The notes under the pieces were generated by a model, which saw only the letters and a program-made list of their open reading frames with translations, made no database searches and was not told the DNA's origin. A DNA stretch of 64,000 bases from Minisyncoccia bacterium (GTDB lineage Bacteria; Patescibacteriota; Minisyncoccia; UBA6257; 2-01-FULL-56-20): positions 260,633 through 324,632 of the forward strand of contig JBEKML010000001.1 of the NCBI GenBank assembly GCA_050008535.1, given 5' to 3'. Positions 51,970-52,570 of the stretch are shown here, piece after piece. Positions within the stretch are counted from its first letter, which is position 1. Each line of letters begins with the position of its first letter. The translations under genes were made by a program, and so were the position numbers.

Positions 51970-52296
51970 ATGGCTGAAGACGAACGCAACATCAAACTTG
52001 GAGCATTCACCTGCCTCTGCGGCGCAGAAGCCCAGAAGCTTGACGGCGTTGGCCTCACCGACCGACGCGAGATGTATGTGTGCTGGACTTGCCCCGAGTG
52101 CGGCAACGGGGTTTCCTGTTCGGTGAAGCTCTCCGATCTATGGAGAGCGTGCCCGCCGCACGGATCGAACGAACAGAAGCTCATCGAGCCGCCCTATACC
52201 GAACCAAAACCAATCCACTTCACACGGAAAGATGCCGAATTGATGCGGATGGGGCACGTTTATATCGAACTTGACGAAGCATCCTCGTCCGCTTGA
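51970..52296 (+). CDS. small zinc-ribbon protein
   Basis: AAGGAGGAGG RBS; CLC...CWTCPEC motif. Confidence 0.5.
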   Translation: MAEDERNIKLGAFTCLCGAEAQKLDGVGLTDRREMYVCWTCPECGNGVSCSVKLSDLWRACPPHGSNEQKLIEPPYTEPKPIHFTRKDAELMRMGHVYIELDEASSSA

Positions 52297-52322
52297 CACG
52301 GTTTGCGACTTGGGCGTATACT
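52293..52322 (+). promoter_or_regulatory. consensus promoter TTGACA-18-TATACT
   Basis: Exact -35; TATACT -10. Confidence 0.5.
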
Positions 52323-52328
52323 CGCTAA

Positions 52329-52570
52329 TAGCTGTTGACGCATCTGCGTCAGGAGAAAGAGCAGGGTGAAGCGTAACCTATCAAACGGACGTGGTATCCC
52401 GTCTCGGTCAACTCGATAGTTGTTCTCCATTGCGTACGCAAAAGGCGAAACGCCTGCCCTTCCTAGCTCCGCTTGCGGAACTTGTGAACCGGTAGCGCAT
52501 CTCCCTCCGGGAGCGCCAAATCAAACAGCGGGGCGGTATCACTTCGGTGATGCCGCCCCTTAACTTTTTT
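52329..52570 (+). ncRNA. candidate ~240-nt small RNA (promoter to strong terminator, no ORF longer than 17 codons in sense)
   Basis: Bounded by the promoter above and a terminator GGGGCGGTATCAC-ttcg-GTGATGCCGCCCC plus TTAACTTTTTT at 52530-52570; internal palindrome TGACGCATCTGCGTCA. Confidence 0.35.

Follow-up and report, generated by a model that had tools for sequence, protein, structure and literature searches.

A possible lineage-specific small RNA gene nested in the 3′ UTR of an orphan gene of a Minisyncoccia bacterium

Small RNAs (sRNAs) that derive from 3′ UTRs by the type I route are made from an internal promoter and have their terminator in common with the mRNA in which they lie; DapZ (from dapB in Salmonella) and MicL (from cutC in E. 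coli) are examples of this arrangement. The sRNAs that lie between genes were predicted in classical E. coli screens from pairs of promoters and terminators, with conservation as a requirement. Regulatory RNAs are to our knowledge almost unexplored in the CPR/Patescibacteria, most of which are uncultured and whose genomes are reduced to ~0.5-1 Mb. Here we use a computational analysis of 64 kb of DNA from a member of this group (the whole stretch is called the window below, and all coordinates without a contig name refer to it) to describe a locus in which a body of ~200 nt (52330-52529, + strand) lies between a near-consensus promoter and an intrinsic terminator. The reading that we prefer, and to which we give slightly less than an even chance of being right, is that the sequence encodes a lineage-specific small non-coding RNA of ~235-240 nt that lies within the 3′ UTR of the gene upstream. 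A small RNA is probably made at the locus, to judge from its signals, and the sRNA reading is plausible but unproven; the promoter, the terminator and the density of hairpins are statistically solid.

The comparison with the type I sRNAs is the closest that we can draw. At the sequence level the candidate has a promoter of its own at the 3′ end of a coding sequence, and the comparison with a related contig (discussed below) indicates that it reuses the intrinsic terminator of the upstream mRNA. Like DapZ and MicL, it would be transcribed in its own right, which is here a prediction. Unlike them (~80-140 nt), it is ~240 nt long and known from sequence alone, it has no conserved seed or known chaperone, and it is absent even in the nearest relative. 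We therefore mean the likeness as one of architecture and presumed mode of working, not of homology. With the sRNAs of the E. coli screens the candidate has in common a near-consensus sigma-70 promoter, an intrinsic terminator ~240 nt further on and the absence of a convincing ORF, and it differs from them in lacking conservation.

In the model that we propose, a sigma-70-type promoter whose -35 element lies over the stop codon of the upstream gene would start transcription near 52328-52331 (the predicted start). The transcript would open with a stable 5′ hairpin, continue as a succession of short stem-loops within a closing helix of 6 bp, and end at an intrinsic terminator that would also end the mRNA of the upstream gene, so that two RNAs, a long mRNA and a short RNA, would have one 3′ end. 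That the short transcript accumulates as a discrete species, and that it works in trans, are both our inference. Its partners could be mRNAs, for which a CU-rich motif (CUCCCUCC) with complementarity to ribosome-binding sites would be one possible point of contact, or else a protein.

The genes on either side appear at NCBI under the locus tags ABSC29_01665 and ABSC29_01670 ('MAG: Minisyncoccia bacterium'), Minisyncoccia being a class in the Minisyncoccota within the CPR/Patescibacteria group. The sequence of the window is identical to a Logan contig (SRR13021960) over the 10.3 kb checked, and it also matches the JGI contig Ga0427963_0000021 (3300038451). The upstream gene (ABSC29_01665; 51970-52296, + strand) encodes a Cys-rich orphan protein of 108 aa, and the downstream gene (ABSC29_01670; 52638-53060, - strand) is convergent with it and encodes an orphan protein of 140 aa. 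The region from 49.5 to 54.3 kb of the window is a series of such small orphan genes, bordered by an HSP70/MreB-like gene, an odd tRNA-like gene, an IS transposase (DDE_Tnp_1_3) and a type III restriction-modification pair. The first-pass annotation had taken this region for a phage island. A PHROG search of the surroundings finds only the HSP70-like protein and weak matches to families of unknown function, with no structural or lysogeny genes; PADLOC reports nothing except a marginal match for the HSP70-like protein; and no viral relatives of the 108-aa and 140-aa flanking genes were found. With no meaningful match from any of these sources, a phage island is not demonstrated, and the locus is a variable chromosomal region of a CPR genome.

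The same searches bear on a second suggestion of that annotation, an antitoxin RNA of a phage island, and on the broader idea of a defence-associated RNA. What speaks for such a role is the company that the locus keeps, which includes a type III restriction-modification system, an IS element and numerous orphan genes. Set against this are the PADLOC result, the absence of PHROG structural or lysogeny genes and of viral relatives of the flanking genes, and the makeup of the locus itself, where we find no tandem repeats in the body, no hydrophobic or otherwise toxin-like ORF, no Pfam matches in the neighbours and no reverse transcriptase domain in the neighbouring proteins, which is also the result that bears on a retron. 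Moreover, the 140-aa gene is found elsewhere without the RNA. Context thus largely refutes the antitoxin or defence reading, which of all the alternatives weighed here we hold to be the most improbable by rank and very improbable in itself. Readings of the locus as a TIGR-Tas, retron, CsrB-like, 6S or RNase P-like RNA were likewise tried and dropped, there being no repeats, partner protein domains or Rfam signal for them.

We now turn to the promoter. Its -35 hexamer TTGACA (52293-52298, + strand) overlaps the TGA stop codon (52294-52296) with which the 108-aa gene ends and is followed, after an 18-nt spacer, by the -10 hexamer TATACT (52317-52322), as the first-pass annotation had described. 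Together the two hexamers match 11 of 12 consensus positions. To see how much weight such a match can bear, consider the window as a whole: promoters that match at least 11 of 12 positions occur seven times on both strands (128 kb of strand), compared with 0.37 +/- 0.67 expected from first-order Markov-shuffled sequence, an excess of ~19-fold above chance. The six others precede groES-groEL, a tRNA-Arg-like gene, a TrmB-type regulator, a periplasmic binding protein and two small ORFs, and Pfam domains are present in two of the ORFs downstream of them. A match of this quality is therefore rare by chance and, in this window, otherwise always stands in front of an ORF or an RNA gene, which argues against any reading in which the body is mere residue (see below).

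At the other end of the body lies the intrinsic terminator that we call hairpin 1 (52530-52570, + strand), of the form GGGGCGGUAUCAC-UUCG-GUGAUGCCGCCCC, then UUAAC, then U6. Here the earlier description is right about the stem and needs amending for the tail: the stem-loop (52530-52559) does have 13 pairs, 9 of them G-C and one U.G, with a UUCG loop, and the T6 run (52565-52570) is set off from it by 5 nt (TTAAC). Hairpin 1 is among the 4 strongest terminators of the window, where the combination of a hairpin with at least 10 uninterrupted pairs and a T-run gives 8 matches at 4 loci, compared with ~1 in shuffles. The U.G pair favours the + strand for this hairpin. Between 52296 and 52530 no second terminator is predicted. 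The convergent 140-aa gene has one of its own, hairpin 2 (52585-52611, with its T-run on the - strand), which is kept with that gene in three other contigs (L005, L006 and L007).

Which gene does hairpin 1 serve? The 108-aa gene has one homologue only (P0002, on contig L003), with 82% identity at both the amino-acid and the DNA level. The differences between the two fall 14, 11 and 33 times on the first, second and third codon positions, and this third-position excess tells us that the 108-aa gene is real and under purifying selection. In L003 the context of the stop codon is GCTTGATAC, and about 25 nt further on we find GGGGCGGGTCACTTCAGTGATCCCGCCCC and a T-rich tail, homologous to hairpin 1. 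It follows that the terminator belongs to the 108-aa gene, and hence that the RNA body lies inside the 3′ UTR of that gene. The body itself is missing from L003, its closest relative; at the position of the -35 element L003 reads TTGATA, and there is no -10 element. The ~230 nt between stop codon and terminator, which include the promoter spacer and the -10 element, are by this comparison either an insertion here or a deletion in L003. Because the body is wholly absent in the closest relative, it is either dispensable or very young.

This comparison also supports the reading that ranks first among the alternatives, in which the body has no function of its own as an RNA and is a structured 3′ UTR or the remnant of a rearrangement. 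It would then be a ~230-nt indel in a recombination-prone region; the promoter could be real or fortuitous, there would be no functional product, and the hairpins would at most protect the 108-aa mRNA from 3′ exonucleases in the manner of REP elements. That the closest relative carries its terminator directly after the stop codon, with no body in between, is as this reading predicts. So is the behaviour of hairpin 1 across contigs: in L003 its counterpart comes directly behind the homologue of the 108-aa gene, and in L006 it neighbours that of the 140-aa gene, so that hairpin 1 marks the boundary, or breakpoint, between contexts that differ in the two. Agents of rearrangement are close at hand as well, the IS transposase being 2 kb from the candidate RNA and an rve-like gene being present in L006. 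Finally, the GC content of the body (0.55) is like that of its flanks (0.54), it has no homologues in the collections that we searched, and, as shown below, its folding energy is unexceptional and its two strands fold equally well. The promoter statistics weigh on the other side, together with a hairpin density far over background and a complete lack of ATG, both of which are quantified below. On balance we consider the remnant reading unlikely, though it comes next in probability after a functional sRNA.

The neighbouring gene on the far side gives no further instance of the body. The 140-aa gene has four homologues, and the RNA body adjoins none of them; the DNA 5′ of hairpin 1 in L006, and the matching regions of L007 and L003, are no more similar to the body than shuffled controls. 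We observe in passing that L006 (5546-6084, minus strand) has ~460 nt without a called gene between a 393-aa rve-like gene and hairpin 1, with a 10/12 promoter inside the end of the rve-like gene and a possible uncalled Cys-rich ORF of 91 aa (5608-5883).

What, then, does the body look like as an RNA? The palindrome TGACGCATCTGCGTCA that the first-pass annotation pointed out is indeed present at 52336-52351 (+ strand), and as RNA it is predicted to form a 5′ hairpin, GACGC(AUCU)GCGUC, with a pair probability of 1.0. It sits just within the predicted closing helix GCUGUU/AACAGC (52331-36 / 52524-29, pair probability 0.91) and is followed by a domain-closing helix GGAGAA/UUCUCC (52352-57 / 52423-28, pair probability 0.92). 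Further short hairpins are predicted at 52409-22, 52430-41, 52443-55, 52468-79 and 52501-13, the last of which includes the CU-rich CUCCCUCC motif, and the hairpin loops of the body read AUCU, CGAU, GUAC, AAA, CUUG and UCC. Counting perfect short hairpins (arms of at least 5, spacer of 2-6), we find six in the body compared with 0.78 +/- 0.89 in dinucleotide shuffles (P about 0.0005); just 0.6% of 201-nt windows across the 64 kb have as many. The energetics are less telling. The whole transcript folds at -96.8 kcal/mol (z = -4.5), with the terminator supplying most of this z; the body alone has z = -1.3 on the + strand, which is not exceptional, and z = -2.1 on the - strand. Hairpins built of Watson-Crick pairs only do not discriminate between strands, and since the fold is at least as good on the minus strand, structure alone picks neither; it is by the promoter, the T-run and the U.G pair of the terminator that we assign the strand.

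The palindrome at 52336-52351 could instead be read as a DNA operator, at about +7 to +22 of the predicted transcript. The window contains it only once, and a search that allows up to 3 mismatches yields 5 matches compared with 2.9 expected by chance; with no further copy in the window beyond chance, we set the operator idea aside.

Hairpin-rich DNA between convergent genes, present in one genome and absent in a relative, also recalls REP/BIME elements and MITE insertions, and thus another reading of the ~230 nt: a small mobile or cassette-like insertion with an outward-facing promoter, lodged between stop codon and terminator. The pattern of presence and absence between relatives that are 82% identical fits such an insertion. 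The interior is rich in palindromes, the ends can pair (GCTGTT...AACAGC), and the -10 element lies within the extra DNA, the -35 being partly ancestral (TTGATA in L003). Unlike REP/BIME or MITE elements, however, the body is single-copy in the window and contains six different hairpins, and it has a strong promoter of its own. A self-BLAST of the window shows no paralogue in the 64 kb, the collections searched contain no copy, and the body does not differ from its flanks in composition. The inverted repeat at the ends is of just 6 nt, with no target-site duplication. We regard a mobile insertion as improbable, and less probable than the remnant reading.

We next ask whether the body could encode a protein. 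There is no ATG between 52323 and 52549 (226 nt), compared with 3.5 expected. We scored coding potential with a frame-specific Markov model trained on 35 long ORFs of the window, for which in-frame gene segments score +8.4 +/- 4.2 bits per 100 nt and off-frame segments -15.2 +/- 10. By this measure every one of the six frames of the body falls below zero (-5.9 to -17.4 bits per 100 nt). The first-pass annotation had stated that no sense ORF is longer than 17 codons, and this holds for ORFs that start at ATG or have a ribosome-binding site; if GTG and TTG starts are allowed, there are two longer ORFs, of 34 aa (52391-52495) and 47 aa (52420-52563). Translation of these, or of the 17-codon GTG ORF at 52366-52419, would make the locus a small-protein gene. 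The GTG at 52366 has a GGAG 10 nt upstream, the sole ribosome-binding-like sequence in the body, and some genes of this genome (groES, for example) have very short leaders, which also speaks for translation. Yet the GGAG is a weak site and is predicted to be paired, within GGAGAA/UUCUCC (p = 0.92), and the 17-codon ORF scores -31 bits per 100 nt. The 34-aa and 47-aa ORFs have no ribosome-binding site and score -4.6 and -8.5 bits per 100 nt (non-coding), and the longer of the two extends through the terminator stem. With no ATG, negative coding scores and no homologues, the body does not look like a small-protein gene, a reading that we find very doubtful and place after the mobile insertion and before the antitoxin or defence RNA, although very short or atypical peptides may escape a full exclusion.

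The minus strand gives the same answer. A 65-aa ORF (52463-52660) is called there by JGI and Logan and is absent from the NCBI calls, which place nothing between ABSC29_01665 and ABSC29_01670. It crosses both convergent terminators, matches only itself among 5.8 billion protein clusters and is not kept as an ORF in L006, so this 'hypothetical protein' is probably spurious. A stop-free minus-strand frame of 86 codons has 0 matches among 1.84 billion protein representatives. A short protein-coding gene on either strand, which the first-pass annotation had named as one of two findings that would overturn its proposal, was thus sought by homology and did not turn up, and a protein-coding reading is unsupported on both strands. 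Together with the enriched promoter class and the conserved strong terminator, this lack of coding potential supports the proposal of an independent non-coding transcription unit of ~240 nt.

Searches for homologues of the RNA itself return nothing beyond chance. The Rfam/Infernal scan that had been proposed as a check assigns no family to the body: with the 4227 covariance models of Rfam 15 at gathering thresholds, the whole window yields just a LOOT motif (62612-62747) and a tRNA, and at E <= 10 on 52100-52800 we see only chance matches to the terminator hairpin, at 16-19 bits compared with thresholds of 50-80. When the stop-free minus-strand frame is used as a pseudo-protein query, genome contigs give one spurious coding match (L004) and viral contigs give no match. 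Four DNA patterns from the body, together with the hairpin-1 consensus, find only chance 17-mer matches in viral contigs, and blastn against phages and plasmids finds nothing, or chance matches in traI at E about 0.9. In sum, no homologue of the body was found in the genome, metagenome, viral, phage, plasmid or protein collections searched.

If the body is a small non-coding RNA, as we prefer to read it, its form may hint at how it works. A string of short stem-loops followed by a terminator is reminiscent of the sRNAs that sequester proteins with multiple hairpins, such as CsrB/RsmZ and 6S RNA. However, the loops of the candidate do not contain a GGA motif, and it has no extended hairpin with a central bubble and no Rfam match at E <= 10. 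Pairing with mRNAs could involve the CU-rich CAUCUCCCUCC, whose complementarity to the GGAGG-type ribosome-binding sites found in this genome is generic. RNAduplex against the 182 translation-initiation regions of the 64-kb window gives duplexes no better than those of shuffled RNA.

A bolder version of the sRNA reading would make the candidate the founding example of a class of hairpin-array regulatory RNAs that is so far undescribed, in ultra-small CPR bacteria (Minisyncoccia): a self-contained, promoter-bearing cassette, acquired and inserted between stop codon and terminator, that acts as a global sponge or repressor through its CU-rich motif. We think this a long shot, slightly less probable than the mobile insertion and slightly more so than the small protein. 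What suggests it is that a similar layout of promoter, unrelated non-coding DNA and a near-identical C(UUCG)G-capped terminator recurs in L010 and possibly in L006, so that variable RNA bodies could have been placed repeatedly before one conserved terminator module. L010 was the one contig found in a metagenome scan whose query was the conserved hairpin-1 consensus and not the body, and its own body cannot be aligned to that of the window. The L010 unit (2237-2420, + strand; JGI Ga0213870_1014142) lies next to hrcA-grpE and is an unrelated small-RNA-like unit, with a TTGACG-17-GATAAT promoter (10/12), ~130 nt of non-coding sequence with three hairpins, a CU-rich AUCUCCUCCUC, and then a hairpin nearly identical to that of the window; its fold has z = -5.0 and it has no Rfam match. 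The hairpin common to L010 and the window may reflect either common descent or convergence on an optimal C(UUCG)G-capped terminator.

If validated, the locus would mean that 3′-UTR-nested sRNAs with a promoter of their own arise in minimal genomes too, and that they turn over between close relatives. As a single-sequence prediction without conservation, it is chiefly useful as a target for the mapping of metatranscriptomes.

Several other features of the window deserve mention in their own right. The promoter of groES-groEL (TTGACA-16-TACAAT, 2105-2145, + strand) leaves only 10 nt between the end of its -10 element and the groES ATG, which makes for a predicted mRNA with essentially no leader; the promoter layout of the TrmB-type gene at 14163 resembles that of near-leaderless groES. 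The tRNA-like gene (85 nt, 53231-53315, - strand) has an 11/12 promoter at 53363-53334 (TTGACA-18-TACAAT). Infernal recognizes it as a tRNA (52.5 bits) whose anticodon loop carries a 16-nt insert, and ARAGORN instead gives it the anticodon TCG (Arg) and a long variable arm; the tail of its terminator (53171-53142), GCCCCTCAACTTTTTTTGGC, is closely like that of the candidate RNA, GCCCCTTAACTTTTTTATGGC. The HSP70/MreB-like (actin-fold) ATPase gene (48003-49250, + strand), which heads the small orphan genes, has a weak match to a PHROG 'partition protein' (E = 6e-6) and may be what is left of a ParM-like segregation module of some integrated element. On the 3′ side of a tRNA-Ser (7209-7296), 500 nt without a long ORF (7297-7797, + strand) are unusually dense in short palindromes: the 201-nt window that begins at 7401 has six, the maximum count in the 64 kb, and the region includes TTTGTGCATTTTTGCACAAA. 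Finally, the LOOT motif (RF03000; 62612-62747, + strand) is a full-length match at 70.6 bits, compared with a gathering score of 46.4, and it lies just 3′ of a small gene that ends at 62553 and is itself followed by a T-run.
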